From an uncultured Planctomycetia bacterium (GTDB lineage Bacteria; Omnitrophota; Gorgyraeia; 1-14-0-20-64-10), in the NCBI GenBank assembly GCA_964372955.1, contig CAYJTC010000002.1:1-42260 (forward strand): 42,260 nucleotides of DNA, given 5' to 3'. Shown here one piece after another: positions 7,092 to 38,947 of this stretch (positions within the stretch are counted from its first letter, which is position 1; each line of letters opens with the position of its first letter). The notes under the pieces were generated by a model that was not told where the DNA came from, ran no database searches, and saw only the letters and a program-made list of their open reading frames with translations. The position numbers and the translations under genes were made by a program.

Positions 7092-7095
7092 CGGA

Positions 7096-10239: not shown

Positions 10240-10243
10240 GAGT
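10214..10243. repeat. Heptanucleotide tract at the MBL gene 5' end
   Basis: GTCGTGA GTCGTGA GTCATGG GTCATGA GT. Period 7. No inverted partner seen. Confidence 0.8.
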
Positions 10244-10294
10244 AAAAGCAAAAATCCAAGGAAAAACAGGCCTCTTCGATGGAAAGGCAGATCT

Positions 10295-10351
10295 AAAGGG
10301 GTCAGACCCCTGTGAAACTCCGTTTTACCTGTAAGGGGTCTGACCCCTTTT
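10295..10351. repeat. REP-like hairpin, GGGGTCAG family
   Basis: AAAGGGGTCAGACCCCT (10295..10311) and AGGGGTCTGACCCCTTT (10334..10350) form a perfect 17-bp stem with a 22-nt loop, 52 nt downstream of the giant ORF-B stop. Confidence 0.85.
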
Positions 10352-10402
10352 GAGATGGGGTGCCGATCCATGGAGGCCAGTATAGCAAAAGAAGGGTGGG
10401 GT

Positions 10403-13400
10403 TTACAGGTAGAGTTCGGGCTGGCGCTCGAGCCGCTTCTGCCAGGTCCGGAAGGAGACGTCCTCGATCTCCAGGAAATCACCCAGCCCGCTCAGGCCCG
10501 AAGGGGTCCAGATGGTCAGGACATCCAGGCCGCGGCCGATGGCGTCCACTTGCATCTTGGTGATCACATCCGACGGGTCTTTATCGGCATAGGGAGGGCT
10601 TTTCAGATTGATGATTTTCGCCGCCAGGCCGGTGTCCTTTAGCCAGCCCTCAATCTGCCCGGCGTGGTGGACATGCTCGGCGAAGATCACCAGGTTGATC
10701 TGCTCGCCGGGGACCGGCTTCAGCTGAGCCAGGCCCTGAAGCACCTCCTCGGTGGCCACCTCCGGCCCCAGGAAGATCACCTTCCCCGCCGTCACGCCGG
10801 GCTTCAGCCGGATTTGAAGCTCCTCAAGCCCGGCCGTAGCAGGTTGGGCTTTAACCCGGGCCTGAGCGAGAGCTTTCGGATACCATTCCTCGTCAACCAG
10901 CTTGCGAAGGGCTTCCGCCACTTGTTTGGCGCGCGCTCCTTGGCCTTCGGTGGCAATGCGCAACATCCCCTCTGTCAAAGAACCTCTGAGCCAGACGAAC
11001 GCCTTCCCGCCGTCCAGCTCCAACTCCATAATCCATCCTCCCATACCGAAGGGAGTCCCATTCTCGCTGGGCAAGGTCAAACCGGCTCCCGCCGGATCGG
11101 CCGGACCATAAGCGGGAGAGAGACCGGTTTCCGAGTCGTAAACAATCCGGTAATCGGCCGTAGGATGCACCGATGTCCCGTCCGCCAGGATGAGTCCCTC
11201 TTTCTGGAGTCGATCCCGCAGGTTTTCCTTCCACAGGGTTTCCCAAGCCCGTTTGAAAGGGATCATGAGCGCCTCCGGAACCTCTCCCTGTGCTCCCTGA
11301 TCGCGGATCGGGGTGGAGAAACGCCAGCTTCCCTCGCTCCGGTCTCCCGGCAGGCTCCCGAGAATATCCAACAGAGTGGGCACGGCAGGCACTTCTACTG
11401 GAGGAACGCCGTTGGGTACCGCGGCGTTTCTGGCTTGGAGCCAACTTCGCGCCCATTCCGGATCGGTGGCCACCATCCCTAGAAATAGAGCGGTCATCGC
11501 CCCGTTGCGGCTGGTATCCCCCAAAAACTGAGCGCTCTCTCCCCGGAATACCGTGCCGCCGTTGGCTCCTTCGATTCCAAGAACCACCCGATAAGTAGGG
11601 CGGCCTCCGGCGTCCTTCTGTGCCTCCAGCTTCCTCATCTTCTCCAAGACGTTGACCTCTCCCACCTCCACTGGGAACACCTCAGCCCCAAAGGCCTTGG
11701 CGATTTCCAAAACCCGTTTGGAGGTGGCGCTGTGAGCGACGACGGCCAATTTTGAAGCATCCCCCGCCGGTCGAGCGCGGGCGGCTCTGGCTAAGCCCAA
11801 AGCCATGTTCATCGCGGCCACCTCTTGGGGATTGGGCTCAACGGCCTGACCGGTCTTGGGATCCAGAAGGAGCGTGTTCGCCCGGTCGGCGTCGTAATCG
11901 GTGATGATGGCGAAATGGGCTTGGGCTTCTTTCAGCACCCTCTCAGCATCGGCCAACGCGTTCCCCTTCTCTGGATCGTTCACCGGCTCCAGGATATGCT
12001 GGGGCTGTCCTACAACATGGTTGATCTCGATCAGATCAAACCCCATCCTTTCTAGGAATTCCGCGTAATACCCGGTTGCCGCCCCTCCATTAGGATCAAC
12101 CACAATCCGGACCCGTTTGGCTTTCTCTCGAAATCCCTGGAACTCCTCCTCCTGTTCCAAACCCCACATCTGCCGAGCCTCTTTGACAACCTGCCCCAGA
12201 ATCTTCTCCCGAGAGACCGTTTCAAGTCTGCCGACGGGCACGGCGTTCAAGCGCTGGACAAATTCCTGTGCCTGCTCAGGAGACGCCCCCGCCTGCGCGG
12301 CCCACCGGCGGAATTGGTCGACGACACTCTTCATCTGGCGCGAGGGAAGCAGGATCCCTCCTTCCACCAGACTTCCCGCGGGTTCGGTGGCGGCTGTTGG
12401 GTATTTTACGCCGTTCCATCTTAAAGGATTGTGGCTGGCAGTGATGATGCCCCCTCCATGCGCTTCCACCAAGCGCACTAGACTCTCAGAGAGGGGGGTG
12501 GGAAGGATTCCCCCCTCGACTTCAACGAACCGGACCTTGACGTTGAACTCCTGGGCTGCGACCGAAATCCCCCGCATGTGGGCCTCCTGGATGGCCCTGC
12601 CGGTTGGACGGGGATCCCGCCCAAAGATGAAGGTAAACTCCGAACGGCCGGAAAATTTCTCAATCTGGAGTTTGGCGAAAAGGTACCCGTATCGCGCGAA
12701 GATCAGCTTCTGCGCGGGGGAAAGCTTCACATCCGCCAGCGGAGCCAAAATGGGAGGGTCGACGTTCGGGCCCAAATCGGCCCGCACACCGGAGAAGGAC
12801 TGGATCAGTGTCCTGTCCGGATCAGTCACCTCGGCCCACTTGGACCAATCGATGGGGCCTAGCCATTCCTCCGGGCCGGCCACAACCTCGCTTTGCGGAT
12901 GGACGAAGACGGCGAACTCCCCTTCGAAACCCATCTTTGAACGAACGACGGTGACATTCCCTCCGAGGGACTGTTGGATCGCCTCCAGGAAGATATCCGG
13001 CTTTCCACTTTCCTCAGGAGGCAGTCCCCAGAGCTGGCCAATCGATCCGGCCAAGACAATCGGCCCCTGCGTGAAGGGCTGCCCGGCGTAGGCGTCCAGG
13101 TAAACCCGCAGGACCTGGCCCAGCTCGGTTCCAACCTGCTCCAGGAACTGGCGGGCCAGTCTGCCGTGGATCGTTGAATCGTTCAAAGCTCTCTGGGTTA
13201 TCCCCTGGAGAACGATCAGCTGCAGCTTCTCGTCCGCCAAGATCGGCCGGTGGGCGCCGGGAAGATCATCCTCAGTCAGATTTTGGGTCACCGGACCACC
13301 GAATAATCGGTCAATCTCTGCATCGGACAGACGGTACAAATCATTGTTTCTCAGGAATTCAATGGTGCGGGCCGCAAGCCACGGCCCTCCAAACTCCTTC

Positions 13401-16400
13401 TCGGCCGGCTCTTCCTCCGGCTGAGGATCCGGCAGTCTCCCTTCCTTGGGAAAATGATAGACCCACGGGCCGTCCGCCTGCCTCATGACACTCCATCCAA
13501 ATTCCCCCAACAGGCCGCCCACTTCTTGTCCGGGGAGTGAGTCGATCGGCTTTCCGCCTTGAAGAACACCGATGCTGGTACCAGTCCCTAAGGTCAGAAC
13601 CATCCCCTGTTGAAGCCCCTTGAGAGCCCCTTCTTCCCAAAGAAACTCTCCCCATACCCGGGCCTCATCCTCGGAGACGATTCGGATGGGCAGTTCCCTC
13701 CCGAAGAGGGAATAGAGCTCCTCTCCCAGAAGCTGTTTGAAGGGGGTGGGCTTCCGAAACCCGACGATCTTGGCGTTCTGGACGGTCAGGGGGCCAACCA
13801 CCCCGCCGAATGAGATCCCCACTTCTTTCAGATTCTCTGGCTGAGCGTCAAGGTCCTCCCGGAGCGTTTTCTGAATCAGTGCGGCGATCACCTGAGCCGC
13901 CCAACGCTCATCCGTATCTTGCCCAAAATCGGGATACATATTCTTCAGTTTTTCCCAAGTGAAGTATTCCGTGGCGATCTCAGAGGCCGCCCGGGCGCCG
14001 TCCTTCTCCCCTACCCCGACCCCCACCTTGAACGCCCCCATGCTTAGATAAACACCGACATCCGGCGCCTGAGCTTCCCTGGTCCCCGGGGCGCTCACCG
14101 TCTCGCGCCCAGCGCCAGACTCGGCCTCCTTATTCGTCGGCCGGCGCTCCTCCAGGCCGGCCGCCGCGCCTGCCAAGTCAGATAGAGCCTGGATGACCGA
14201 CCGATTCGAAGTTTGAGGCAGTCGGTTGACCAACTGGTCCAGCACCGCCTCCCAACCGCCTAAGAGGGCCGCCGCCCTGCGCTTGGCAATTTCGATCTTG
14301 AGGATCTCACAGACTCCCGCGGGCCCCAGAGTTGGGCAGCGGATGACTGAGCCGGGCAGCTCTTCCTGAGGCTCTCCCACCAGCACTGTGGTGATCCCCT
14401 CCTGGCTCATGGAAAGCCCTGCAGCATCCGCGTCATCGAGGAAAACGACTTTCCCCTTCCGATGTCGGAGGAAATCATCCTTCCCGAAAGCGTACAGGTC
14501 GATGGAGGTGTCGAGGAAGGGGCCCACCAAGGTTTCCCCAAAAGCCTTTACCAAACGGGACCGAACCTCTCTACCTGCCGATTCCAATGCGTTTTCCGCC
14601 AGACCGTTAGGGCGAAGCTGCACGATGCCATACAGCTTGGGGCCCTGACCTTCCTGCATCACATAGAGGTTCAGATCCCCCAGCCGGTAAAGATCCATGT
14701 CCGGATTGGCCGGTGGAATCACCGGATCCTCCAGCTCTCCCCCGATGTTCAAACCTGGGATAGGCCCCCACTCCGCCGACTGGATGGCCGCCACAATCCG
14801 GTCGATCGTGAACTCTCCGGATCCCATGCGCTGGGTCACCAACTCCGGAAACTCCTCTTTCAACCAGCGGGTCCCATTGCGGCCCATGTGCTGCAATGGG
14901 CCGGTCCCTTCTTGGGCCCGCTGGCGAAGATTCTGATCCGCTCGGTTGGAAAGAAAGCCCCCTTTCCCCCCCAAGGCCAGATATTCCCCGCACAGCCGCA
15001 GCACCTCCGGATCGGCCTGGGCCTTGCCGTCCGGAGCGCCGGCACGGTCCAGGTCGATCCAGATTTCATCGGCAGGAGGATCCCACGCCAGCCGTTCCAT
15101 TCCCTTGAGAGCCGGCGGCAGCAGAGCTTCCCACCTCTGCGCCAACTGCTCGGGCCGATAAGCAGGCTGAAGGACGCGGATCCCTTTGACCTCGCGCGGG
15201 ACCGCCTCCGTTAAAGGCAGACGAACCACCTGGATTCCGGGAAACGTCTTCTCCGCATCCTTCAGTTTCACCGGACCTCGGGGATGCAGGTGGAAAACCC
15301 TCTGATACGCTCCCGGATTTTGTCGGGCAAGCCAGTCGAAGGTCTTTCCTTCCATCACCTCAGGCGAGGGCCCTTTCGGATGACGCTGGCCAAGCATCAC
15401 GATGCTGACCACCTGACTCAAAGTCGCTGTCGGCACCTGACTTTGGATGATCCCCTCCATCGCCTTCCGATAGTCCACGATGTTGTAACGGATGGTAAAG
15501 AGCAGGTTGTCCGGGTTGACCATCCAGATAATCGTGGCTCCCCGTTTCTTGGCGTCGATGAGCGCCTGAATCACCCCGGGGATGGAGAGGATGCTGGCGA
15601 CACTCTCATGGAAATTTCCGGGCGCGATGACGACCAGCTCCGCCCGCCGGATCTGCCGCAGAAAGAGCGGATTGGCGGCAAAGGGCGGCTGCCCCTTGCC
15701 CGAGACAAACCGGTAGGCGCCGGGTCCTAAGAGAACCGAGGCCCGATCCTTCGGGCTCCGTAGCATCTGCTCCAGAAGCTGCTGCGCCTTCTGCGCAGAG
15801 ACCGGTTCCCCGTTGGGGCCGGCCACCAGATCCGAGAGGATCTCCAGACTCTTGGGATCCCCCACGGGAGGAACGACTAATCCTACCGTGCCCAGCCCCC
15901 GCCGCACCGTCGCGTGCGCTCGGCCAGTCCTCAGATCACCATGCACCGTCACGATCTGAGGAGACTCAAAGGTGGTCGGCAGAACCCAGGGCCCTCCGAC
16001 GGCTTCCCGGAGCAGATATTCGGCAACCAGATACTTTTCTGTGTCGATGGGCCCTCCCCTCGGATAGGCCCCGACCATGACCTTCGCCCCGACATCCAAC
16101 AAATTCTGCAAGGTCTGGCCGCTGACGGCGATATAATCCTTCTGAATCAGCTCTGCATCGACAACCTCAAAGACCTGCTGGAGGAACGCCAGGAACCGAA
16201 CCAGCGCGGCCCGCCCTTGAGAACCCAAAGGCCCCTGCTCCTCCTCCCAGCGGGCGATCATGCTGGGGATCCCTGTGACCAGCTCCTCCATCTTTCCCTG
16301 CCGATACTCCTTCTGGGCCGCCCGTGAAACCGCCAGTTCCCACAGGGACCCCGGAGGAATTTCGGAAGGCAGCTCCAGCTTCAGCAGCTCCCGGATCAGG

Positions 16401-18781: not shown

Positions 18782-18811
18782 CAAAAAAGAGTCGCTAAGG
18801 CAACGTGAATT

Positions 18812-21800
18812 TTACAGGTACTGAGATACCTGCTCTTTGAGTACCCCTTCGGCCGCCTGAATGAAGGACTCCGGAATGGGAACCCCCAGGAACTTTACCA
18901 CCTCCATTAGATCCGATAGGAACAGGGCGAGCTGATAACTGAATCCCTCCGCGCTGAGCCTTTTCTTGGTTTCCCGAGCCGCCAGCATGACATTCCCCCC
19001 GTAACTGACGGAAGCATCGATGAGAGTAATCTGCAGACCCAGCTGCTCGGCACGAGCCTTTACCTTTCTTAAGTGATCTCCATTCTCCACGATGGCCACG
19101 ATCGGAACTTGCTGTCCATCGACCGGCTCAATAGAGGGGACCATCTCCAGAAAAGCCAGCGCTTCGTGAGCCAAGATGAGCCCCTTGTGGGCATCCACCG
19201 CGGAAGGAACGCGGACCAAGGGAATTCCCGAAGTTCTGGAAACTCCGATCGTTCTGGTAACAGGGTTCAAGACGGTGGTCGCCGTCACTAGCGGTGTGGT
19301 CCCCAACGTCCGGACCGGCGGCACCGCCGTCGGCGCTGCCCCCTCCGTCCGTTCCTCCAACCCGGCGGCCGCCGCTTGGCGCGCCTGATCGAAATTCTGT
19401 TTGAACGGCAGGAACTCCGGCTCAAGAGTCAGGTCCGCCACCGACTTCTTAATAACCGGACTGGGCTTGTTGGTCAAATAATTGTCCACGGCAGTCTCCA
19501 GCGCCTGATCCGGATTGTTTTCCCCTTCAAAGAGAGGAGCGAAGAGGGCCTTGGCCGCGGACTTCGCGTCCTGCCGGGCATCCACCTCGATCAGCCGGGC
19601 CAAAACCTCCAGCTCCCGGCCCCAGAGGTTCGTATCCCCCATAAACTGTTGCTTCACCCTATCCAGCCATGCCTCATCATCATCCTTGATCTCCATCCCC
19701 CAATCGCCAGTTTCCGTGTGCCGGGCAAACGCGGTCTGCCGGAGTTCGCTCAGTTTCCAACCCTGCCCGCTCCATTCCGACTGATAGATCCCCAGCCGGG
19801 TCAGGAGTTCTTTCTCCCCATCGTTGACTTCGTAGAATCGGCGGAACTCGTCGCCGATGCTGGAATCGATCAGCTCCTGAATCAACTCCGGCTCAACCTC
19901 CTGGAAAACGCCATCAAGAACGGCGGGATTCTTCTCAATCGCCTGAATGTGGGCGTCAAACTGCGTCTGGGTCACCCCGTTGGGGACATCCGGCTGATCG
20001 CCTTCCTCCACGCCACGCGCGGCGATCGGGAAGAATCCGATCCGGATGTTCCTGCCCGAAGTCTGGAAGAAATGGCTCATGGTGTCGTCCGGCACGGTTA
20101 AACGGGTGGAGGCCAGGAGCTGACCGGTCTCCTCCGGAGTCACCCCGTTGGAGGCCAGTCTAGTCCGCAAGGCGTTTAAGATTCGCTCCGTCTGCTGAAT
20201 GATGGCAGCCCCTGCCCTGCGAACCGCCTTGTCGGAGGAGAGTCTGAAGCTAACGTAAGCTGCAGCTTCCCGCAACACGAGATTGTCCATCAGGCCGTTG
20301 GAGTCCGGGTTCTTCAAGGCCCCTTCCTTGATCTCTTTTTCGAGCTTGGCGAGCAACTCCGCGGCCTTCGGGTCCTGATCCTCGCGGGCCTGAAGCGCCC
20401 TCCGGACCCGATCGATCGCCACCCAACGCAACGCCGCCTCCACCCGGCCAGCCATCTGGGTGATGTAAGCGGCATGGATCGGGATTTTTTGAGTTCGGGC
20501 CTTCATGTTGGCCGTCACCTGGGCCATAAAACCGGCCACCGCCCCAGCCACCGACCCTTGGCCCGTGATGTTGGTGAAGAGCCCCTGGGTATGGACATCC
20601 TCGATGATGCTCTCGGTGTTGATCTGGGTCGGGTCCACCTGGTCGAGGTCGTCCCCCGCCTGCGTTAACGCTTCGTTCCAAGCTTCCAGAACCCGGCCAT
20701 AGACGCCGGCGAGCGTCCCGTCCACCTTAAAGACCGGATGGACCTTGGAATAGCCGTTCCCCAGGGGATTCTCCAGGAAGGCGTCCAACTGCTGCTTCGG
20801 GAAGATCTCCGTCACACCAAGCTCCTTCATCATCGCCTGGGTCTCGGCTGCGAACCGGTCTCCCAGGAGAAAGATGTCGGCTACGACTTCATGACGTTTG
20901 CTTAACCGGGAGTTCACCTGAAAGCTGACCTGCCCCCGCATTCCCTTCTCATGGATGAAAATGGGCAGCAACGCCCGCCGTGCCGGCTCCCCGGCCACCA
21001 TGGTGGCCTCCCGCAGGAGCGCCCACTTGCGCTGCTTCGGATCGTACCCCGGGTTGCTTCTGACGAAATTAAAGACCGCCTCCTTGACCTTCAGCTGGAG
21101 AGACCTGCGCTCCCGGACATTCCGCCGGGAGAGAGTCGGATTGAGCATGACGAAGGTGTAGTAATCGGTGAGCATGTCGATCCCGGCTCCATAGTCGTTC
21201 CCGAGTACCTGGCCAGTCAGCCGCACCGTCCTGCGAAGCCGTGCCTTCTGGATCTTCTCATTGAAGTAGGTCACAAACTCGCTCAAGGAGCCCGTGGGAG
21301 CTTTCTCCGCCCAGTAAGCCAGGAAGGACTGCCCTTTGTTGGTCTTGGCATCGAAATCCTTCTCCACATTGGCCAGCTGGATCTGAAGCAGGTCTTGCCG
21401 CCAGTCGGCCAGTACCTGTTGGGCCAACGGCTTGGCCAAAGCTTCCAGCCGGTTGAGCAGCGCATGCCACTCCTGCACTTCGGCCTGGATAACTTCCGGC
21501 GTCAACACATCCGCTCCAAACAGTTCTTTATTTCTCAGGGTCCGTTCCTGAATCCCTTCGGAAGCCATAAGAAAAGTGGCGTCGGCGAGAAACCGCAAGG
21601 CGCTTCTCTTCTCCGCTTCACCCAATTGGCCGAACTCTTTCTCAAGAGATTCCCGGATAAACCGATTCCGTTCCCGGGAGTTTTGGGGGTGGGTGAAGAA
21701 GGAAAGTTTCTGGGCTCCAAACTCTGCCCGGTCCCAGTCCTTCGCCTGCTGAAGGATCCGACCCCTGACCTGCTCTTCTGTCTCTGCTTGACCAATCTCC

Positions 21801-24800
21801 TCCAGCCCCGCGCGGGCCGGCTCGACGATGATTCTGGTCGGGGTGAATGTGGCTTTGACCCGACCACCGACATTGCCAGGCACACTCCCCGCGCCACCCA
21901 ACAAATCCCTCACCTTCCAGGGACGGTCGCGCACCTCCTCAGGGGAAACATACCAGGGCGAGGGGACACCCTGCGTAGTGACCTCAGCCCGCGGATTCCG
22001 TGCCGCGAATTCCAGGATCTTCTCGTAGACCTCTCCCTGCTCGCCCTCCGTCGTCTCCAACCCCGCCGCGGTCAACGGGAGGTCGGCTCCGGAGCTTGTC
22101 AGCGCCGCCGTCAGCTGAGAAACTCGCGTCTCGATAAATTGCGTTTTCGGCCCCAGGATCTCGACCACAAACTTGTTGCGAGCTGAGTCGTCCAGGAGCT
22201 CTTTCCCCTCTAGCCCCAGAGTGGCGACGACCTTCGCCACACGCTCATCGATTCTCGTCTTGATCAACTCCCTCGTCGCCCGGCTCTGATCCCGATAAGC
22301 GGCGAGGATCTCCGACACTCTTTTGCCTTCATGATTCTCAAAGAGGGTCTGCCGTTCGTGTTCCCATCGCCTGTTTTGGGCCGGGCCTTTCAGGAGGGCC
22401 TGAACCGATTCGGCGTTCAGGCTTCCGGCCTTTTCCAGACGGTCCAATTCCCGGAAAAGCCCCTGCGCGGAATACTGCCTGAGGAACTGCCGATAGGCCT
22501 CGATCCCTCTGATCCGGTTATCCTTGTGCAGGTAGTTGTTGCCCAGCCCCGTGACTCCCTGAGGGCTTGGCCTTTTACCGCCGTCCTTTTCTCCCATATA
22601 AAGGGTTCGTTCCGGATCCACGATATCTTCCAAGTGCGTAAGCGCCTCTTTGACATGGATCGCCGTTTCCGGAGCGTAAATCTCCCCCCGGTATGTGGAG
22701 CGCAACGATTTCTTTCTAGCCGACCATTTCCACTCGTTTCGCAGAAGCATATAGGGCAGATACGTCAGAACCCAACCGGGAGCCACCTCGTTGTAAAGCC
22801 TCTGCTTGGCGCCTAATTTGGTCATGCTGTCCGGATCCGGAACCCCCATGAGCATGAAGGGAAATGTGACCGTCTGCCCGCTGGAGACCAGGATTCCTGT
22901 CTGGAAGAGCGCGTGATCGGACCCGCTGAAATCCGCGGGGAGCTGGAAGACCACGCCGGATCCCCCAAACCCGCCTTTGGGAAGCTTCAGCTCCAGCTCC
23001 GCTCCCGACCCGTCATGATTCGCCGTGATGATCCCAGCCCCGACATTGAATCCGTAAGGAAGGTGGCCTCCCAACACCAGGGAGGTCTTGTGATGGCTGG
23101 TGACAAAATCTTCTCCCAGGTCACCCCCGAACTCCCCTTTCGCCACAAGGCCATCGGGCCCAAGATACATTCCGGTCACGTTGACTCCCTGTTCGGCCGT
23201 GGCGGCTTCGTCAAGGAACATCTGCGTCAACTGAGACGCAGTCGCCGCGTGAGCCTGGGGTTTCATGACCACAAAATTGAGCTGGGCGGCGTTATCAACC
23301 ACCACTTTCTGCTTGCGAACGTGCTGGCGGACGGCCTCTTCGCCGCCTTGGCGAAGCTGAGCCAGTTTGGCTCCAGTCAACTCGACCAGCAGCCGCGGCG
23401 TCTCTTGTTCACTCCTGGCCAAACGGAGCAGCTCTTCCATTTCCGCGGAGGTAAACCCTCCGATCAGCACTGCTTCCTTGACATGCTGGGCATGATCAAG
23501 GAAAGTGTTCTTGCCAACGTAAACGTTGATGACCTGCGAGGTGGTGTCGATGACGGACCCTTCCTCCACAATCCCCCATTTCGATCGGGCCAGCTTGACG
23601 TACTCGGCGTGCTCCGCCCGGTATTGATCCGCGAATCTCTTGTCGGTGAGGAGCCGGCTGGACAGGTGCAACGCTCCTTTCAGGATCAGCTCCGGATGAA
23701 CCGGCAGTTTCCGAACGCCGGCCTCATTTCGGATCTCATGATACTGGGAGAGCCCAAAAGTGGTCTCCGGGTCAGCGGCCATCCTAGCTTTCACCACGAT
23801 GTTATCGCCCTTCAGAACGTAGTTGGTGATCTCGGAAGAATCGATGGCCATGTTCTTTCCCAGACGCGAGTTGCGGATCTCGGAACTAAAGATCCCCCTG
23901 AGCTTCCGGGTGATCCCGTCGGGCAAGGTGATCTCTCTGGGCTCGATCCGCCCGATCTCAACCCGCTCGAAGAAGCGGTTCCCCAAGATCCGGGAAAGAA
24001 ACGCCTTCACCTGATCCGAGGACATGGCGGCGTCAATGAAAACGTCATCCCAGCTTCCGATTTTTCCGGAACTGTTCACGGCGAAATTTCCTTGTCTCTC
24101 CAGAAGAGCTTGTTCCTCTTCGCTGAGCCCTCTGAGCGACTCCGCCGCCTTCCACGCGCCGGCCTGATCAGGCGCCAGGTTGACAGCCCGCACCGACGCC
24201 AGGAACTCGGAGGTTTCCCGGTCTTGGCGAATGGCGGCGATCGGATCGAAGGCCTCCACCTCCTTCGCCCACGTCAAGAACTGCTCCTCCAGCCCGGCCT
24301 GGGAAGGCGGTGGGGACTGGACAGAGGTGGCGGGGGAAACAAAGAAGTAACTTGCGCTGGTGGTGGGTCTGTCTTCTTCCAGGCCGGCCAGGTTGGTGAC
24401 GATCTTGGTGACCCCCTGCTGCTGGTAGGTGAGCACCCGGATCAGCTGATCCGGGTCATGGGCGAAGCCGAAAACCATCGGCAGGTTGATGCGATAGATT
24501 TCCAGCGCTTCCTGCAACAGTTGGTAGACCTCTCCGATTCTCAATCTGGCCTCTTTGGGCGTCGCCTCGGGAGAGTATTTGGATTCCAACGCGCTAATGG
24601 CCCCCGTGATCTGCTGCTTCAAGATTCTGTCCTTTTCAGACAGGCCGTCATCATCCTTCTTGTTCAGAGCCGCGTAGGCGCGGATGATGACCACCTCGTC
24701 CAAAAACTGCGGGTCCTGTGGATCATCGAACTGTCCGAATACACCGCGGGTTCCTGCAGGGTCTTCCAGCTCTTTCCAGATCGCTCTGGCCACCTTGGCC

Positions 24801-27800
24801 GCCCACTCCGCCAGCGGCTGGAAACGTTTCTTGGCCAGGAAAGAGGTGAAACCATGGATGGCCGCGATGGCCTCGACCGGGTCCCCCGTTGGAAGCGCGA
24901 TCACGTGGTCGGGCACATCCCCGCCCATCTGGTACAAAGACTCCGCCTCTTTCTTCGAGATCAACACCATGACCGTGGTTTCCCAACGGGGAAACCGTTT
25001 CCTAAGCTCTTTGTAGAAGACCGCCCGATCCGGCCCTTCGGCCCCGGAATCGTAGACGACGACCAGCTCTCCTCTGCGCGCCCGCCGGACCTGGCCCATT
25101 TCCTGGCGGTCGACATCCCACGGTATCCCCGCCCTCTTCAACAGCTCCACCCGTCGGCCAACCAGCTGGTTCACCACCAGCCGGTTGAGCACCAGCAGCT
25201 CCAGAAGATCCCCGTTTGGAGTCGCGATCACTGCGTCCGAATGGGTCACCCCTATGGTCTTGTGCAATGTCAGCGGGATGTTCTCCAGGGACTGTTTTCG
25301 CCCGTGGCGAAACGCCTGGAAATGACCATCCGGAATCGAGAGGTCCTTGAGGTCCCCCTCAGTTCCGACATAGAGGAAGAACCCGGGTTCCCGGTCGGTC
25401 GGGAAGGGAGGGTTGACCGCCCGCGGAATCATCTCGGTGGTCCGTTTCTTCATGTCGGGATCGTAAGCGGCCTTTTCCGAGGGGCCCACATTGCCGTACC
25501 AGACCACCAGCTCGCCGCCGGGCTGCTGCGCCGCAAAACCGCCGTGCCCGAAGTTGCTGGGCTCCTCCGGATAGGAAACCATTCCCAGGTATTCCCGGAT
25601 CCACCGCGCAAAATCCCGGGCCAGCCATTCCCGCGCTCCATATCCTCCCGGCCATATATTGAATCCTTCCCATCCGCGGTCCTGACTGCGCTTCTCGGCG
25701 AACCCGGCAATCCGGTTGATCGCTTCTGAGTTGTATCCGGAATCGGAAGTTTCATCAATTGTTCTTTGAATTCCCGTGGATGCCGCCGCCTCCCGGGAGG
25801 TTTGCTCCTGCTTAATATGGGAACGGGCCTCCTCCTTCCATGTTTCTGTGAGATTGGTGCCTTCGTCGATGGAGCGGAGCGCCAGTTGAGCCACCAGCCG
25901 ATCCAAGGCGGAAAAGACAGCGAATCCCTGATCGTACGGCCTGCCCTGAAGCTCCAAGAGGTTGGAGAGTCTGGGCCGGATTTCCTGGACAAGCGGGGTG
26001 GTCTCTGAAGAATGAAGGCAGATCTGCTGATCCGGGGCGATATTCCATCGAGCGATCAGGTCGGCGGCCTTGCGCTGTTCCGTTTCATGGCCTTTGTCAT
26101 TGGGATCTCGCCCGTAAATCATCGCCTCGCCGGGACGGACGAAGACAACCAGGGTCCCCCGCGGAAGCGAGTATCGGCCGCCCCTCCTGGCCAACGCCTC
26201 CTCGTACGTCATCACTTCGATGGACGCTGGACAGAGGTGCTGATAGGAGTTCCTGACCAGCTGCATGGCGTACGTGTCCGTTCCGTTGCCCACCAAAAGG
26301 ATTTTCTGAATTGGTTCTCGAGTCAACCGGGCGTGATTCAGAGCGTCCGCAAAATGCCTGCGATTGGCGCGAACGGTCTCCGTCACCGTGGATGGATCCC
26401 ATAGTTCCTTTTGGCTCTGATACTGCTCGTTGGTCCTACCATTGCTCGCGGCAATGTCCCTCTCCAAGAATTCAGAAGAAGAGCGAAGCACGGTGGCCGT
26501 CACCCCCACCACCTCCGCGAACTTAAGACCCAGTTCGCTGACTGTCTTGCCCTTACCTCTTTCGATAAAGGTGACGTTCACGGGCCGGAAATCGACCCCA
26601 TAGCCGGCGTGGTGGGAGGTCCATGACCGCCTGGAGTTGTCCCTCCAGTAGCTTTCCACATCCGAGAATCTGTCCCTGTAACTCTTGAGTTTTGCTCCAC
26701 CCTTCTCCGAAACAGGTTTCTCCCAGGGCAGAACCTTTCCTTGGAAGGAACTGTCCAGGACAGCCGCCAGTGTCCCCGCTTGGAGACTGCCATCCTCCAT
26801 CCGGCTCCCATGGGCGCGGAGTTTTTCCAGTCGCTGGTGAGCCTCTAGATTAATCCTCGGCGCATCCAACGAGCTCTGCGCCGCGGCAAGAGCCTGCCGA
26901 CGCCATCGTTCAATCCCGAGAATTCGCAGCAGGAGGATGGCATGGTTGGCCGTCCCTGTGGCGGGAACGGAGCTCTCCGGAGTGGACCGGGTCCTCAAGG
27001 TGCCTCCGCTGACGCGCGCGAACCGATCCACAGCGCTCCCCGCCGTGTTGGTCACTCCGATCACTTTGGCTCCGCTGGGAAGGGCCGTCGCGATCAGATT
27101 GAGGGCAGAGCCAGTTTCTCCCGACTGCGAAACCACCAGAAGGATGGTCTTCTCCCCAAAGGTCAGGTTCGGAGTCAAGCGCAGTCTCAAGCTGTCCGAC
27201 TGGCGGATGGTGTCAAAAAGGGGCTCCTCAGCGTCAGCAATCTCCAAGATGAAGGTGGAGGTCCCGGATCCGGCACCCACGACCACGATCTGCGCCTCCG
27301 GGTCGCTCAGAAGCTTCAGCATTCCGGGGGTTAGACCGGTCCCGTCCTCCCCAACTTCCAAGTGCGGCTCCAGCAGATCATACTCGTCTCTCCGGACGTA
27401 CCGGTCAAAGGTCCTCAGGTAAGTGGCGTGCTGAACCAAAGTCTCCAGCTCGTAGGGGGAGAGCTTCCGGTAGGTCTCTTCCCCCTCCTTCAAAACCTCG
27501 ATCCAGGCGGCATCCAGCGTGCTTACCTCCTGAGCCAAGTTCACTGTTTCCGAACCGTTCTCCCAGGTCTTGTAGCGATTCACCTGGGTCCCATCCACCG
27601 TATAGATGGTCCAGGGCTCCACAAATTTCCCTTCCGCGGTTCCATAGACCACATTGATCCCTGGAAGAGACGTCGGATATCTTTCTTTGACCCTCCCCAT
27701 CTGAGGAGCCGCCCCGCGAAGCTCAGAAACAGCCACCACCCGGGCGATCTCACCCTGAGAATCCCGCTCCACCACGAGATTGACCTGAGTGGTCTGTGTC

Positions 27801-30274
27801 TGGGAATGGGCTCTGGCCACCACTCCGCCGTACGGGTCGTTGAGGCTAGAGACCTGGATCGTAATGTTTAAGCCTTTCCAGAAAACGTCTCGGAAATCCA
27901 GCGGAGACGCCTTGGAGAGGAATGCTCCGAAACCGGTCGGCTGAGGCTGTTTCGTCTCCGGATGAGGGTCGATGGGCTCTCCATTGTGGAGGTCAAAGGT
28001 CAGATACCCGTGCCACTTATTCTCTTCCGTTCCCCGCTGGTCGTAATAACTCGGATCCGAGATGGCCCTCTCAAGAACCTGCACAAACGCCTCGGAAACC
28101 ATCTCCTGGAACTTCTTGCCTCCCATCTGCTTCGAAGCCAGCAGCTCGTCTGCCGTGAAGAGAAACCCGTGCTTGGCTAGGAGCAACCGCATTTGTCTGA
28201 TTTCATTCCTATAATCGTAGATCTTTCGCTCTATTTTTGCTTTCTGATCAGCAGTAGCTTTTAAGAGGGCCTGCCTCAGGCTATGGACCCTCTCGTTGAC
28301 CTCCCCCAGCTGTTTCCCCAGCGCTTTGAAGACCTCCAGGACGTCGATTAAGCGGAACAGGCGCCGAAGCGCGACCTCCGACGGCTCTACGGAGAAATGG
28401 CCTCCATCGTTTTGGGTCAAAGACATCAGGACCAGAAGCATGAGAAGCACTTCCGAATCGGTGGTCCCCTGGATCTTCACCCCTTTGGAGTCCAAGTAGG
28501 CCCGCACCCAGTCATAAGTCTCCCAATCCCCGTTGTGCGAAAGGCTGAAGACCCCGTTCTCCCACCCTTCCTCCAAGAGCTGATCGATCTGACGGCCATC
28601 GTCTATCCCCAGCAAAGAAGCCAAGACGGGCAGAATATCCTCCAGATCGACTTCCCAATGATGGGCGTTGGCCAGCTGGAATCCGCCTTTTGTCGCGAAA
28701 CGGGTGTGAAAATAGACGCCGCGCGCGGAAATGCGGGCCAACGGGTGGTCCCGCCGTCCTTTTTGGGTCGTGACGATCCAGTCGGAACTGACGGGGGATT
28801 CCTGCTTCGCTTCAGCCTGCAGCTCTCCTCGCCCAATGGCTTGAAAGAAGCCGGAAACCACATCCTTCACCCGGCTGGCGTCCTCTCTTTTCATTCCCTG
28901 CTGATTCGCGGTGACTCCTCCGACGACCCGGGAAACAGCGAAGAAGCGGATCGACTTTAAATGGCCCTCTGGGCTCTCCACCAGCTTAACCCGTTTGGCG
29001 CGGGCCCATCGCCGCAGCTCCAGAGTTACCGAGAGGGGTAGGATTTCCCTAACCAGATCGGCCAGCGGCATCTCATACTTGATCAGAAGGGCCGCGGCGT
29101 CGAAACCGCGGGGCTCCAGCAGCTCAATGGCCCGGTAAGCGGCCTCATAAGGCGAAGAGTCCGGCCGGATCCCGAAAAAGGCTCCTTTCTCGAGCTCCGA
29201 AGACGCCAACGAAGAAGGCACGCTCACCACGCCGCAGCAGCCGATCACGCCAGCCAGATGGGATGCGGAGAGAACCCGGACCCCTCTGGGAAGAGCCCCA
29301 TCCGTCCGAACTCCCACCAGCCCCCGCCCTCCGATCCACCGGCTCATGAACTCCCTGCGGGAAACGGTGACCTCGGCGGTCCCGAGGACCCCCTCTTCTC
29401 CAAAGGCCGGCTCCGTAAAGGTGACCGCTTCCGGCGTTGCCTCTTTAACGACAACAAAATGACTCTCATCCAAGTGGGCGATGAAATGTCCGGCCTGTGT
29501 CAGAGATCCTAAATCCTCTTCTCTGGCAGCCACCCCTTCCCAGCGAATCCGGGAGCCTGCCGACGCTCCTTTTTGGACCGTTTCCAGACGAGTCTGAATG
29601 TCCAAAAGAGAATCCGCCAGCATCCGATGAGTCATTCCACCATGCTGACGCTCCACGTAAGAGAATCCTCCCGTGCGGACCAGCTGATGCAGGATGAGAA
29701 TCGCCGTCTGCCGCTCCCGGCTGTTGAATTCATCGCTTTGCTCCTCTTCCGGGCGCCGGAATTGGGGATCCGAAGTCAGATTGGCGATCGCATCCGCACC
29801 GCAGGTGACGCAAGCCACGGGAGATGCCCCGATGACTGCTTCTAGCTGCGCTTCAACTTCCTGTTTGGAAGGGAGCCGCCGGGCCAACTCTTTGGAGCGG
29901 TCCTTAAGGAATTTCATTCCCGCAAGAACCTGATCCTGGAGATTCGCCTGCCGTTCAGGCAGTGAGGCCAGGAACTGATCCAACTCTCCCAGGAGCGTCC
30001 GATCCTGAGCAGTGAGGGTCCGATTGGAAATGTCCTTTTTCCGTTTCGGCTCCACCAGAACGGAGGTGTGGCCAATAATCGCAGCAACCGGAGTCGTCGC
30101 GCCGCCGCCCAGCTGTTCCTCCAGGCCGGCTTGGGACTTGCCCTCGATGCCGGGCCGCAGGGTCCTTCGACCCAGCTCAGGACTGGCTCCGGCGGGAAAA
30201 GCTTGTGACAAGGTAAGGGAAAGGATGAGTAAATACGCGAAGAACCGCCGAAACAGAAAACCCTTCGTCGTCAT
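18812..30274 (-). CDS. Giant multidomain protein A (3820 aa): signal peptide, C39-like Cys peptidase, GlmS-like Ntn amidotransferase with SIS modules, GlmU-C-like beta-helix, transaldolase-like barrel, shared C-terminal domain
   Basis: Uninterrupted 11,463-nt ORF. ATG 30274 with GAGAGGGGA 7 nt upstream.
- aa 1-30: signal peptide (MTTKGFLFRRFFAYLLILSLTLSQAFPAGA|S).
- aa ~150-345: papain/C39-like peptidase (PVACVTCGADAIANL; AGHFIAHLDESHFVVVKE).
- aa 347-~620: class-II amidotransferase as in GlmS (CGVVS, AYRAIELLEPRGFDAAAL, YFHTRFATKGGFQLANAHH, SLSHNGDWETY, GTTDSEVLL).
- aa ~995-1125: SIS (IVVVGAGSGTS, LLVVSQSGETGSAL, VIGVTNTAGSAV).
- aa ~1320-1470: SIS-like (ILLVGNGTDTYA).
- aa ~2240-2450: hexapeptide beta-helix (VGKNTF LDHAQH VKEAVL IGGFTS; GAGIITANHDGSGAELELKLPKGGFGGSGVVFQLP, compare the GlmU NYDG region).
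- aa ~3020-3290: transaldolase/FSA-like (VMLNPTL, GQVSFQVNSRLS, VFKVDGT, FTNITGQGS, ITQMAGRV).
- aa 3642-3820: C-terminal domain. Confidence 0.93.
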   Translation of the reverse strand: MTTKGFLFRRFFAYLLILSLTLSQAFPAGASPELGRRTLRPGIEGKSQAGLEEQLGGGATTPVAAIIGHTSVLVEPKRKKDISNRTLTAQDRTLLGELDQFLASLPERQANLQDQVLAGMKFLKDRSKELARRLPSKQEVEAQLEAVIGASPVACVTCGADAIANLTSDPQFRRPEEEQSDEFNSRERQTAILILHQLVRTGGFSYVERQHGGMTHRMLADSLLDIQTRLETVQKGASAGSRIRWEGVAAREEDLGSLTQAGHFIAHLDESHFVVVKEATPEAVTFTEPAFGEEGVLGTAEVTVSRREFMSRWIGGRGLVGVRTDGALPRGVRVLSASHLAGVIGCCGVVSVPSSLASSELEKGAFFGIRPDSSPYEAAYRAIELLEPRGFDAAALLIKYEMPLADLVREILPLSVTLELRRWARAKRVKLVESPEGHLKSIRFFAVSRVVGGVTANQQGMKREDASRVKDVVSGFFQAIGRGELQAEAKQESPVSSDWIVTTQKGRRDHPLARISARGVYFHTRFATKGGFQLANAHHWEVDLEDILPVLASLLGIDDGRQIDQLLEEGWENGVFSLSHNGDWETYDWVRAYLDSKGVKIQGTTDSEVLLMLLVLMSLTQNDGGHFSVEPSEVALRRLFRLIDVLEVFKALGKQLGEVNERVHSLRQALLKATADQKAKIERKIYDYRNEIRQMRLLLAKHGFLFTADELLASKQMGGKKFQEMVSEAFVQVLERAISDPSYYDQRGTEENKWHGYLTFDLHNGEPIDPHPETKQPQPTGFGAFLSKASPLDFRDVFWKGLNITIQVSSLNDPYGGVVARAHSQTQTTQVNLVVERDSQGEIARVVAVSELRGAAPQMGRVKERYPTSLPGINVVYGTAEGKFVEPWTIYTVDGTQVNRYKTWENGSETVNLAQEVSTLDAAWIEVLKEGEETYRKLSPYELETLVQHATYLRTFDRYVRRDEYDLLEPHLEVGEDGTGLTPGMLKLLSDPEAQIVVVGAGSGTSTFILEIADAEEPLFDTIRQSDSLRLRLTPNLTFGEKTILLVVSQSGETGSALNLIATALPSGAKVIGVTNTAGSAVDRFARVSGGTLRTRSTPESSVPATGTANHAILLLRILGIERWRRQALAAAQSSLDAPRINLEAHQRLEKLRAHGSRMEDGSLQAGTLAAVLDSSFQGKVLPWEKPVSEKGGAKLKSYRDRFSDVESYWRDNSRRSWTSHHAGYGVDFRPVNVTFIERGKGKTVSELGLKFAEVVGVTATVLRSSSEFLERDIAASNGRTNEQYQSQKELWDPSTVTETVRANRRHFADALNHARLTREPIQKILLVGNGTDTYAMQLVRNSYQHLCPASIEVMTYEEALARRGGRYSLPRGTLVVFVRPGEAMIYGRDPNDKGHETEQRKAADLIARWNIAPDQQICLHSSETTPLVQEIRPRLSNLLELQGRPYDQGFAVFSALDRLVAQLALRSIDEGTNLTETWKEEARSHIKQEQTSREAAASTGIQRTIDETSDSGYNSEAINRIAGFAEKRSQDRGWEGFNIWPGGYGAREWLARDFARWIREYLGMVSYPEEPSNFGHGGFAAQQPGGELVVWYGNVGPSEKAAYDPDMKKRTTEMIPRAVNPPFPTDREPGFFLYVGTEGDLKDLSIPDGHFQAFRHGRKQSLENIPLTLHKTIGVTHSDAVIATPNGDLLELLVLNRLVVNQLVGRRVELLKRAGIPWDVDRQEMGQVRRARRGELVVVYDSGAEGPDRAVFYKELRKRFPRWETTVMVLISKKEAESLYQMGGDVPDHVIALPTGDPVEAIAAIHGFTSFLAKKRFQPLAEWAAKVARAIWKELEDPAGTRGVFGQFDDPQDPQFLDEVVIIRAYAALNKKDDDGLSEKDRILKQQITGAISALESKYSPEATPKEARLRIGEVYQLLQEALEIYRINLPMVFGFAHDPDQLIRVLTYQQQGVTKIVTNLAGLEEDRPTTSASYFFVSPATSVQSPPPSQAGLEEQFLTWAKEVEAFDPIAAIRQDRETSEFLASVRAVNLAPDQAGAWKAAESLRGLSEEEQALLERQGNFAVNSSGKIGSWDDVFIDAAMSSDQVKAFLSRILGNRFFERVEIGRIEPREITLPDGITRKLRGIFSSEIRNSRLGKNMAIDSSEITNYVLKGDNIVVKARMAADPETTFGLSQYHEIRNEAGVRKLPVHPELILKGALHLSSRLLTDKRFADQYRAEHAEYVKLARSKWGIVEEGSVIDTTSQVINVYVGKNTFLDHAQHVKEAVLIGGFTSAEMEELLRLARSEQETPRLLVELTGAKLAQLRQGGEEAVRQHVRKQKVVVDNAAQLNFVVMKPQAHAATASQLTQMFLDEAATAEQGVNVTGMYLGPDGLVAKGEFGGDLGEDFVTSHHKTSLVLGGHLPYGFNVGAGIITANHDGSGAELELKLPKGGFGGSGVVFQLPADFSGSDHALFQTGILVSSGQTVTFPFMLMGVPDPDSMTKLGAKQRLYNEVAPGWVLTYLPYMLLRNEWKWSARKKSLRSTYRGEIYAPETAIHVKEALTHLEDIVDPERTLYMGEKDGGKRPSPQGVTGLGNNYLHKDNRIRGIEAYRQFLRQYSAQGLFRELDRLEKAGSLNAESVQALLKGPAQNRRWEHERQTLFENHEGKRVSEILAAYRDQSRATRELIKTRIDERVAKVVATLGLEGKELLDDSARNKFVVEILGPKTQFIETRVSQLTAALTSSGADLPLTAAGLETTEGEQGEVYEKILEFAARNPRAEVTTQGVPSPWYVSPEEVRDRPWKVRDLLGGAGSVPGNVGGRVKATFTPTRIIVEPARAGLEEIGQAETEEQVRGRILQQAKDWDRAEFGAQKLSFFTHPQNSRERNRFIRESLEKEFGQLGEAEKRSALRFLADATFLMASEGIQERTLRNKELFGADVLTPEVIQAEVQEWHALLNRLEALAKPLAQQVLADWRQDLLQIQLANVEKDFDAKTNKGQSFLAYWAEKAPTGSLSEFVTYFNEKIQKARLRRTVRLTGQVLGNDYGAGIDMLTDYYTFVMLNPTLSRRNVRERRSLQLKVKEAVFNFVRSNPGYDPKQRKWALLREATMVAGEPARRALLPIFIHEKGMRGQVSFQVNSRLSKRHEVVADIFLLGDRFAAETQAMMKELGVTEIFPKQQLDAFLENPLGNGYSKVHPVFKVDGTLAGVYGRVLEAWNEALTQAGDDLDQVDPTQINTESIIEDVHTQGLFTNITGQGSVAGAVAGFMAQVTANMKARTQKIPIHAAYITQMAGRVEAALRWVAIDRVRRALQAREDQDPKAAELLAKLEKEIKEGALKNPDSNGLMDNLVLREAAAYVSFRLSSDKAVRRAGAAIIQQTERILNALRTRLASNGVTPEETGQLLASTRLTVPDDTMSHFFQTSGRNIRIGFFPIAARGVEEGDQPDVPNGVTQTQFDAHIQAIEKNPAVLDGVFQEVEPELIQELIDSSIGDEFRRFYEVNDGEKELLTRLGIYQSEWSGQGWKLSELRQTAFARHTETGDWGMEIKDDDEAWLDRVKQQFMGDTNLWGRELEVLARLIEVDARQDAKSAAKALFAPLFEGENNPDQALETAVDNYLTNKPSPVIKKSVADLTLEPEFLPFKQNFDQARQAAAAGLEERTEGAAPTAVPPVRTLGTTPLVTATTVLNPVTRTIGVSRTSGIPLVRVPSAVDAHKGLILAHEALAFLEMVPSIEPVDGQQVPIVAIVENGDHLRKVKARAEQLGLQITLIDASVSYGGNVMLAARETKKRLSAEGFSYQLALFLSDLMEVVKFLGVPIPESFIQAAEGVLKEQVSQYL
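30197..30260. repeat. Direct repeat copy 1 (the 5' coding end of giant ORF-A)
   Basis: AAAAGCTTGTGACAAGGTAAGGGAAAGGATGAGTAAATACGCGAAGAACCGCCGAAACAGAAAA aligns with 30689..30751 at roughly 85 percent identity by eye. Confidence 0.85.
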
Positions 30275-38941: not shown

Positions 38942-38947
38942 CCCCGT

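Follow-up and report, generated by a model that had tools for sequence, protein, structure and literature searches.

Why should one five-residue string recur throughout two giant bacterial proteins, and what would read it? The question is raised by a 42,260-nucleotide (nt) stretch of Omnitrophota DNA (contig CAYJTC010000002.1 of assembly GCA_964372955.1, positions 1 to 42,260 of the forward strand; the whole stretch is called the window here), in which two neighbouring minus-strand open reading frames (ORFs), ORF-A and ORF-B, carry the pentapeptide AGLEE or AGLET eleven times between them. Analysis of related proteins revealed that the motif, in the general form [ASTG]GLEE ahead of modules, is a family-wide trait, and that a Sec-type leader and a C-terminal domain (CTD) complete a fixed plan; ORF-A and ORF-B have all three features. 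The reading we favour, with about an even chance of being correct, is that xGLEE is a polyprotein processing site, at which an exported chain would be cut in its linkers into separate enzymes, probably by a subtilase.

Motif copies in the two giant proteins

The two ORFs and the motif copies that they contain are listed below.

18812..30274, minus strand: ORF-A, 3820 amino acids (aa); identical in sequence to entry P0006 of the protein library
10403..18784, minus strand: ORF-B, 2793 aa when read from TTG; library entry P0007
30116..30130, minus strand: AGLEE, ORF-A aa 49; first motif, 48 residues from the start and behind the signal-peptide-like leader
24374..24388, minus strand: AGLEE, ORF-A aa 1963
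24284..24298, minus strand: AGLEE, ORF-A aa 1993; ahead of the DUF4954 module
22052..22066, minus strand: AGLET, ORF-A aa 2737; variant with T as its final residue
21797..21811, minus strand: AGLEE, ORF-A aa 2822
19352..19366, minus strand: AGLEE, ORF-A aa 3637; last motif, ahead of the CTD
18590..18604, minus strand: AGLEE, ORF-B aa 61; first motif behind the leader
17711..17725, minus strand: AGLEE, ORF-B aa 354; N-terminal border of the GlmU-like module, kept in P0001-P0005
16811..16825, minus strand: AGLEE, ORF-B aa 654; C-terminal border of the GlmU-like module, kept in P0001 and P0003-P0005, not in P0002
14147..14161, minus strand: AGLEE, ORF-B aa 1542
12866..12880, minus strand: AGPEE, ORF-B aa 1969; degenerate twelfth site, at the junction of the ROK and phosphoglucomutase (PGM) modules
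10820..10834, minus strand: AGLEE, ORF-B aa 2651; last motif, directly ahead of the CTD

The start of ORF-B is likely the ATG at 18781, giving a protein of 2792 aa. Translation placed all eleven copies, ten AGLEE and one AGLET, at the amino-acid and nucleotide positions given in the original prediction, each in the frame of ORF-A or ORF-B on the minus strand. The prediction had also confined the motif to these two proteins, and a six-frame scan of the window added only one further AGLE[ET], an AGLET at 19752..19766 that lies out of frame inside ORF-A and is not part of a real protein. From the composition of ORF-A and ORF-B (6613 residues), 0.039 AGLEE and 0.065 AGLE[ET] are expected, in agreement with the earlier estimate of far less than one, and the Poisson probability of at least ten AGLEE is ~1e-21. 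AGLE (11 occurrences) and GLEE (10) are the top 4-mers of the two proteins, and the next commonest occurs five times.

Conservation lies at the level of the peptide, as had been suggested from a count of at least seven codon strings; the eleven sites are in fact encoded by nine distinct 15-nt strings. Self-BLAST detected no internal protein repeats in ORF-A or ORF-B, and no DNA repeat extending past the 15-18 nt of the motif was found in the window, ruling out a DNA or protein repeat as the source of the copies. A compositional quirk is likewise ruled out, by the expectation given above and by the near-absence of the motif from unrelated sequence: all other six-frame ORFs of at least 150 aa at 81 Omnitrophota loci, 442,713 residues in total, contain 15 GLEE and a single [ASTG]GLEE.

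A family with a leader, a linker motif and a C-terminal domain

The CTDs of the two proteins occupy the following positions.

18815..19216, minus strand: CTD of ORF-A, aa 3687-3820
10406..10819, minus strand: CTD of ORF-B, aa 2656-2793

A CTD profile run against 1.84 billion representative proteins returned 75 proteins at E<1e-3, comprising 72 credible representatives, each <50% identical to the others, and three spurious matches of repeat type. The domain is ~135 aa long and ends at most six residues from the C-terminus in 72/72 representatives, whose host proteins range from 90 to 5062 aa. Each family protein carries one conserved CTD, whatever its number of modules, and in nearly all members the domain is preceded by the motif or a one-residue variant of it.

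In the set of 78 proteins formed by the CTD profile matches together with P0002-P0004, GLEE occurs 214 times in 104,323 residues, and 206 [ASTG]GLEE were observed family-wide against 1.5 expected. A logo of 212 sites is sharp and five residues wide, reading [A.54, S.16, T.13, G.13]-G-L-E-E. The residue before Gly is A, S, T or G at 96% of sites, and Gly itself is nearly invariant (115/121 AxLEE strings), forming with both glutamates the most invariant positions of the motif. Met, Val, Ala, Gln and Phe occasionally replace Leu, and Ile and charged residues never do. The flanks, for which the original prediction had proposed a logo from homologues, carry essentially no information beyond a slight enrichment of Pro, Ala, Ser and Thr at -2 to -4. 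A sharp motif with a constrained -1 position and unconserved flanks is what a linker site recognised by a protease or other enzyme would look like. Variants with a residue other than Leu (AGMEE, AGAEE, AGVEE, AGTEQ) cluster by protein (permutation p about 1e-4), examples being AGVEE, AGTEE and AGAEE in P0036 and AGAEE and AGTEQ in P0037. Such clustering is expected if a trans-acting reader drifted in some lineages, and it suggests a recognition factor acting in trans.

The motif is kept at equivalent junctions in homologues. Those of the first 900 residues of ORF-B (P0001-P0005) have AGLEE, TGLEE, SGLEE, VGLEE or SGMEE ahead of the GlmU-like module, and P0001 and P0003-P0005, though not P0002, also carry the motif behind it. 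The modules that follow the GlmU-like part differ among these proteins and include a GHMP kinase, an inositol monophosphatase and a PGM; the corresponding segment of P0004 has no Pfam match. The giant ORFs that adjoin thrC in the closest metagenome-assembled genomes (MAGs; loci L002, L005 and L007) and both giants of locus L001 have 2-5 GLEE each. At the degenerate AGPEE of ORF-B (aa 1969), L002 reads AGLEE and L007 reads AGLEG; under a cleavage model, the ROK and PGM modules at this site may stay fused in this organism.

The position of the motif relative to the modules was evident from BLAST alignments among family members, 45% of which start at most 15 residues after a motif, against 8.7% at random, while 18% end near a motif, against 8% at random. 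The clustering of alignment starts indicates that the motif marks the N-terminal edge of each conserved module, behind a variable tail. Every Pfam match checked falls between motifs. The DUF4954 module of ORF-A matches a module of L001 that likewise starts at GLEE, the ROK module of ORF-B matches a module of L007 starting at AGLEE, and the PGM module of ORF-B matches a module of L002 starting at AGLEE where ORF-B reads AGPEE. From these comparisons the modules have clearly been shuffled between proteins, the same module appearing with different partners. The minimal member P0003 consists of leader, AGLEE, GlmU-like module, AGLEE and CTD, and its AlphaFold model has pLDDT <50 only at residues 1-47 and 341-360, both of which bear the motif. 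The motif is thus predicted to lie in low-confidence, disordered linkers just N-terminal of the modules.

The arrangement of modules in the two window proteins follows the same plan. ORF-A begins with leader, AGLEE, a GlmS-like module, AGLEE, a 25-aa spacer, AGLEE and a DUF4954 (left-handed beta-helix) module, and goes on with AGLET, an 80-aa spacer, AGLEE, an 810-aa module with no database match, AGLEE and the CTD. ORF-B begins with leader, AGLEE, a 288-aa module with no match, AGLEE, a GlmU-like uridylyltransferase, AGLEE and a YvcK/CofD-like module, and continues with AGLEE, a ROK kinase-like module, AGPEE, a GlmM/PGM-like module, AGLEE and the CTD. The domain matches are the following.

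26933..28555, minus strand: GlmS-like part of ORF-A, with GATase_6 at aa 574-614 and SIS at aa 1038-1114
23474..23995, minus strand: DUF4954 match, ORF-A aa 2094-2267
16826..17710, minus strand: GlmU-like nucleotidyltransferase module, ORF-B aa 359-653, with AGLEE on both sides
15530..15676, minus strand: CofD/YvcK-like match, ORF-B aa 1037-1085
13490..13897, minus strand: ROK-family match, ORF-B aa 1630-1765
11480..12640, minus strand: phosphoglucosamine/phosphoglucomutase domains I-III, ORF-B aa 2049-2435
about 29234..29239, minus strand: Cys346-Cys347 of ORF-A (...HLAGVIGCCGVVSVPS...), the apparent glutaminase start

These matches are weak yet consistent, and active-site strings are present in the mutase (TASHNP and DYDADR) and in the nucleotidyltransferase (GxGTRF). 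Together, the enzyme modules of ORF-A and ORF-B are the steps that produce UDP-N-acetylglucosamine. Matches to Pfam, PDB or NCBIfam overlap none of the motif sites. The original description of the motif as lying in linkers between recognisable domains therefore holds for the linkers wherever it could be tested, and is overstated as to the domains, since several flanking segments contain no known domain (ORF-B 66-353, ORF-A 2827-3636, and the 25-aa and 80-aa spacers). A protein search with the DUF4954 module region (ORF-A aa 1960-2830) returned nothing at E<=1e-5, and a scan of GTDB genomes with patterns of the GlmU-like module found no relative. The class II glutaminase part of the GlmS-like module seems to start at an internal Cys-Gly-Val-Val. 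Class II glutaminases need that Cys as a free N-terminal residue. There is no xGLEE near Cys346-Cys347, which leaves either an additional, perhaps autocatalytic, cut or an inactive glutaminase.

Both proteins begin with a leader.

30131..30274, minus strand: ORF-A leader MTTKGFLFRRFFAYLLILSLTLSQAFPAGASPELGRRTLRPGIEGKSQ; resembles a Sec-type signal peptide and is followed by 'LR', nine residues ahead of the first motif
18605..18784, minus strand: ORF-B leader, of the (R)(L/F)SAW..IQAL type

The family leader is hydrophobic, with a c-region of the form P-x-x-A-[FYWL]-A-L-R in full-length members; about ten members, many of them >1,600 aa and ORF-B among them, have the (R)(L/F)SAW..IQAL type instead. 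A conserved 'LR' lies 1-15 residues ahead of the first motif, which stands at median residue 46 across the family. Tandem motifs are common near family N-termini, the second often following 10-40 residues after the first. A hydropathy scan detected no convincing internal transmembrane segment in ORF-A or ORF-B. Cys makes up 0.16-0.18% of ORF-A and ORF-B and 0.12% of the family, compared with 1.0-2.2% in cytoplasmic and 0.2-0.4% in exported proteins of the window; it is depleted even though the modules are homologues of cytoplasmic enzymes. On the leader pattern and the Cys depletion, it is plausible that the leader is a Sec signal peptide and that the proteins are exported via the Sec pathway. 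The leader pattern is not shared by the other exported proteins of the window, and it hints at a dedicated export or maturation step.

The CTD is a previously unnamed domain: neither NCBIfam nor Pfam has a model for it or for the leader. Its most conserved string is L..LGRFLGIP. The AlphaFold model of the ORF-B CTD (mean pLDDT 90.5) shows an alpha/beta domain containing four parallel-type strands, for which the PDB offers no significant fold match (best E 0.011, TM-score <=0.4). In a model that includes the upstream motif, the motif is placed with low confidence and does not dock onto the CTD. The folded part of 20/72 CTDs itself contains one to three extra [ASTG]GLEE, most of which sit where the long helix preceding strand 3 ends (e.g. 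P0012; the equivalent residues of the ORF-B CTD are about 68-72 and 117). A metagenome scan with a narrowed CTD alignment returned two loci only.

The adjacent subtilase gene and the function of the motif

In a set of related genomes, the gene directly downstream of the GLEE protein encodes an S8 subtilase. At L005 this is a 630-aa subtilase with a fervidolysin-type prodomain, whose gene begins 21 nt after the GLEE giant. Its orthologue group comprises proteins of about 600 aa that are 43-80% identical and are named as Omnitrophica/Omnitrophota proteins by NCBI; each member has a signal peptide and a prodomain, and 27/27 retain the D/H/S triad together with the oxyanion Asn. In 9/9 related loci that include DNA upstream of the S8 gene (L004, L005, L086, L087, L089, L090, L091, L092 and L093), the gene lies immediately behind that of a GLEE protein and on its strand, starting 10-101 nt from the stop of the GLEE protein, with overlapping ORFs in one locus. 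The upstream ORF matches the CTD profile in eight of the nine, while in L090 it carries the motif and its C-terminal domain is divergent. These loci share the synteny block of the window, which comprises MBL, OmpA, ThrC, NIL, sigma factor, metal resistance, OEP and membrane-fusion protein genes.

The position of the motif in linkers N-terminal to modules, the co-variation of variants within proteins and the adjacency of the S8 gene in 9/9 loci favour processing. In the proposed pathway, [A/S/T/G]-G-L-E-E would act as a short linear recognition motif that marks each module start in exported modular multi-enzyme proteins. The protein would be made as one chain with an N-terminal Sec-type leader and would cross the inner membrane unfolded, after which a dedicated secreted endoprotease would cut within the flexible linkers, at the motif or beside it, releasing the GlmS-, GlmU-, GlmM-, ROK- and YvcK-like enzymes and the CTD. 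The best candidate for this protease is the S8 subtilase with the fervidolysin-type prodomain; we infer both the cleavage itself and the identity of the protease. Candidate scissile bonds would lie after EE, after Leu, or between Gly and Leu. Cleavage after EE would mean that recognition is wholly non-primed and that the new N-termini vary. Many subtilases prefer Leu at P1, and cleavage after Leu would fit this preference and the observed spectrum of L>>M,V,A,Q,F.

A bolder version, possible but on balance doubtful, is that some Omnitrophota export whole pathways, here the complete UDP-N-acetylglucosamine route, as single Sec polyproteins that open with a dedicated leader, carry xGLEE ahead of every enzyme and close with a private CTD, the motifs being read by a co-encoded secreted subtilase. 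Active enzymes would then be freed beyond the cytoplasm, perhaps on or within a host or prey cell, and the result would be a bacterial, non-viral and non-toxin polyprotein system with a universal junction code and freely swappable modules.

Several observations weigh against processing by the subtilase. The S8 gene is absent from the window (no match by tblastn with the S8 protein), and the window, L001, L002 and L007 all pass straight from the giant to the MBL gene with no S8 gene between. The motifs are intact although the gene is missing, so the protease must be encoded elsewhere in those genomes or is not the reader. The S8-adjacent loci are all orthologous and belong to one synteny block, and the adjacency may therefore in part be inherited gene order. 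A GLEE-like autoprocessing sequence was looked for at the S8 prodomain junction and none was found, and alignment of the S8 protein with subtilisin BPN' revealed an intact triad and a shortened S1 loop but gave no hint of specificity. The motif copies inside CTDs occupy structured positions in the models, where cleavage is unlikely and a role in binding or avidity would fit at least as well. It is also hard to see what enzymes dependent on ATP, UTP, glutamine and acetyl-CoA would do outside the cytoplasm. Finally, the whole case is sequence-based.

The motif could instead be a docking or sorting element on an uncleaved chain, bound by a receptor, a chaperone, a secretion component or the protein's own CTD, so that the uncut chains would be retained, sorted or cross-linked as a multi-enzyme assembly, in which many motifs and one CTD per chain would give multivalency. 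We consider this unlikely. A short, sharp motif in disordered linkers is equally typical of binding motifs, there is exactly one conserved CTD per protein, and within-protein co-variation of variants fits any trans-acting reader; the tandem motifs near N-termini, 10-40 residues apart, and the extra motifs inside 20 of the 72 CTDs, where a protease could not act, also speak for docking. However, the modelled CTD and its own upstream motif do not dock, the CTD does not detectably resemble any known peptide-binding fold, and the conserved adjacent gene encodes a protease, with no obvious receptor. The motif also stands at the N-terminal edge of the module and not anywhere in the linker, which suits trimming to a defined N-terminus. 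A post-translational modification site, at which the glutamates or the backbone would undergo glycosylation, methylation, amidation or ester/isopeptide cross-linking, appears very improbable. No transferase, ligase or ATP-grasp gene was seen adjoining family members, our literature search found no G-L-E-E modification sequon and we know of no modification system that uses one, and the recurrent enzyme neighbour with matching logic is the protease, even if the sharp, accessible pentapeptide in linkers of apparently exported proteins, the two glutamates among its most invariant positions and the recurrent neighbourhood of an exported MBL-fold hydrolase would suit modification. Among the three peptide-level roles put forward in the original prediction, the evidence favours processing over docking or sorting and over modification.

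Two further explanations dispense with a reader of the peptide. GLEE might be structural punctuation, a helix N-cap or first turn inherited with shuffled modules, perhaps through recombination at short shared DNA. The modules are clearly shuffled and their homology begins right after the motif, which could thus travel with the module; in the P0003 model a short helix starts at the Leu of the first motif, and the copies inside CTDs lie at helix ends or starts. If the string were a cap, however, Ser, Thr, Asp or Asn should be acceptable at the Gly position and Ile at the Leu position, yet Gly is kept in 115/121 strings and Ile is never seen. Capping gives no role to the constrained small residue ahead of Gly, the same five residues stand on modules of unrelated fold and on leader-proximal copies that precede no module, and the clustering of variants by protein is unexpected without a common reader. 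Recombination scars are unlikely because synonymous codons vary freely and DNA similarity does not extend beyond 15-18 nt; taken together, structural punctuation is decidedly unlikely.

We give next to no credence to the alternative, raised in the original prediction, that GGAGGAG or GGAGGAA acts at the RNA level as an internal Shine-Dalgarno (SD)-like element, pausing ribosomes at domain borders or starting translation of modules. GGAGG is present in 18/29 sites with DNA, where about 12 are expected from codon usage, and the motif Leu is CTG or TTG in 26/29 sites, compared with 60% in the same genes. Since there are orthologous copies among the 29 sites, this mild enrichment does not count as independent evidence. 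The in-frame TTG or GTG reported 6 nt downstream of two window sites (A-1993 and B-654) is present; across the 29 sites, however, an in-frame start occurs within four codons after the motif at about 9/29, against roughly 28% by chance (a rough estimate). The peptide is kept in 11/29 sites that lack GGAGG (4/11 window sites), the conserved -1 residue (A/S/T/G) and Gly lie outside the SD-like string, and separately initiated modules would lack the export leader. Internal initiation was rejected on these grounds, the SD-like string being absent from some sites and start codons occurring at about the chance rate. C39 or double-glycine processing was rejected as well. The C39-like domain invoked earlier was not found in ORF-A, in ORF-B or in any of 20 neighbouring ORFs, the window thus having no C39 domain, and there is neither a double-glycine leader pattern nor any conservation in the logo upstream of -1.

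In the window, the giants are accompanied by ordinary genes, for an MBL-fold hydrolase, OmpA, threonine synthase (ThrC), a NIL-domain protein and an ECF sigma factor, and further by a metal-efflux system, a GH94 phosphorylase, a ROK regulator and ABC sugar transport genes. The ThrC is 82-86% identical to versions from Candidatus Omnitrophota MAGs. Two exported neighbours flank the giants.

9532..10482, minus strand: exported MBL-fold hydrolase (Lactamase_B_3 / PRK00685-like), directly downstream of ORF-B
31099..32847: 582-aa exported protein upstream of ORF-A, with no Pfam or NCBIfam match

The MBL-fold gene is a recurrent neighbour of GLEE proteins, and in relatives the S8 subtilase gene sits between them; it was rejected as a universal partner owing to its absence in L005, L085, L086 and L092. 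Between A-like and B-like giants, a PIN/MazE-type toxin-antitoxin pair was observed at L001 9222..9898 and L091 3749..4422, and at L090 the subtilase is followed by a HEPN/nucleotidyltransferase pair. A 42-nt tandem repeat (window 7103..7203; 2.4 copies, 98% match) immediately upstream of the NIL-domain gene yields repeated MPGASAHRPSQVEA in the long form of ORF 6852..7220, and the real start of the gene is probably after the repeat. The ABC sugar-uptake genes at 38990..41269 and 37649..38950 of the window are unusual fusions, one of a solute-binding protein with a permease, the other a permease with a weak CBM30-like N-terminal part.

Comparison with known systems

Giant Omnitrophota 'multi-enzyme metabolic cluster' proteins and Archaeovorins have been described previously (West-Roberts et al. 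2023, bioRxiv 10.1101/2023.11.21.568195; bioRxiv 10.64898/2026.06.07.730766). The published giants mostly have a signal peptide or transmembrane helices and tile PGM/PMM, ROK and other sugar-metabolism domains; both preprints leave cleavage as an open question, and one of them, which puts cleavage forward and mentions S8 and C39 domains, says that the cleavage points are unknown (10.1101/2023.11.21.568195; 10.64898/2026.06.07.730766). ORF-A and ORF-B resemble these proteins in being encoded by Omnitrophota, as judged by ThrC identity and the shared synteny block, and in carrying many sugar-metabolism Pfam domains per chain. They differ in size (3820 and 2793 aa, in a family of 0.5-5 thousand aa, compared with at least 10 thousand aa), in having no convincing internal transmembrane helices, and in that the S8 domain, part of some published giants, is here a separate adjacent gene in relatives. 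The junction motif, the common leader and the common CTD are not described in the Omnitrophota papers searched, and a full-text search for AGLEE returned nothing relevant.

The comparison suggests a bacterial polyprotein-like family, definable by leader, motif and CTD, whose universal junction tag is a putative processing site. For the question of whether such giants act as one chain or as cut pieces, the motif supplies candidate junctions, a minimal substrate and a candidate protease. It also provides rational split points for structure prediction and expression of giants, and further family members could be recognised in metagenomes simply by the combination of leader, xGLEE density and CTD. 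If cleavage were confirmed, this would be a rare cellular polyprotein strategy for metabolic enzymes, and its short, portable, protease-readable junction tag might be of use in protein engineering. It is a puzzle that apparently active enzymes of the UDP-GlcNAc pathway should bear export signals in a bacterium that is suspected to live on other cells.

Outside Omnitrophota, MARTX and large clostridial toxins cut themselves by means of a cysteine protease domain (CPD), at Leu in the linkers between effectors. Like MARTX, the proteins described here are giant chains of unrelated enzymatic modules with a short conserved linker site, apparently secreted and presumably cut. In contrast to MARTX, CPD, RTX repeats and a type I secretion signal were not detected with Pfam and NCBIfam in ORF-A or ORF-B, nor among the matches listed for the family members scanned, the modules are housekeeping-type sugar-nucleotide enzymes, and the five-residue motif is much stricter. 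The P97/P102 adhesins of Mycoplasma hyopneumoniae are processed at S/T-X-F|X-D/E in disordered regions, as shown by proteomics. They share with the present family a short motif that recurs in disordered segments across paralogues, and differ in motif, phylum and protein content, and in that cleavage is proposed here from sequence. Double-glycine leaders similarly have a small residue and then Gly just before the possible scissile bond; however, C39 sites do not have the invariant primed-side L-E-E, and the upstream hydrophobic pattern of such leaders is absent. For the docking alternative, the nearest analogue is the cellulosomal scaffoldin-dockerin system, in which many exported enzymes likewise have one small conserved C-terminal module per chain. 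Unlike dockerin, the CTD is alpha/beta without a significant structural match, and dockerin is not among the listed Pfam matches of the members scanned.

Cyanobactin biosynthesis offers a further comparison. The precursor PatE, a short ribosomal-peptide precursor with cassettes of 6-8 residues, is cut by the subtilisin-like protease PatA, encoded at the same locus, at G(L/V)E(A/P)S, which is repeated before each cassette. The site of the present family is GLEE and not GLEAS, its cassettes are whole enzymes of 300-1900 residues, and its S8 protease, unlike PatA, has a fervidolysin-type prodomain and a Sec signal peptide. Heterocyclase and macrocyclase genes, present in cyanobactin systems, are not found in any locus, and neither is an AYDG-type second site. 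Compared with PatA and PatE, the S8 protease is encoded with its putative substrate in 9/9 related loci with upstream DNA and is not encoded in the window. What the two systems have in common is a five-residue string starting G-(L/V)-E for each cassette, GLEE, GVEE and GMEE overlapping with its first three positions.

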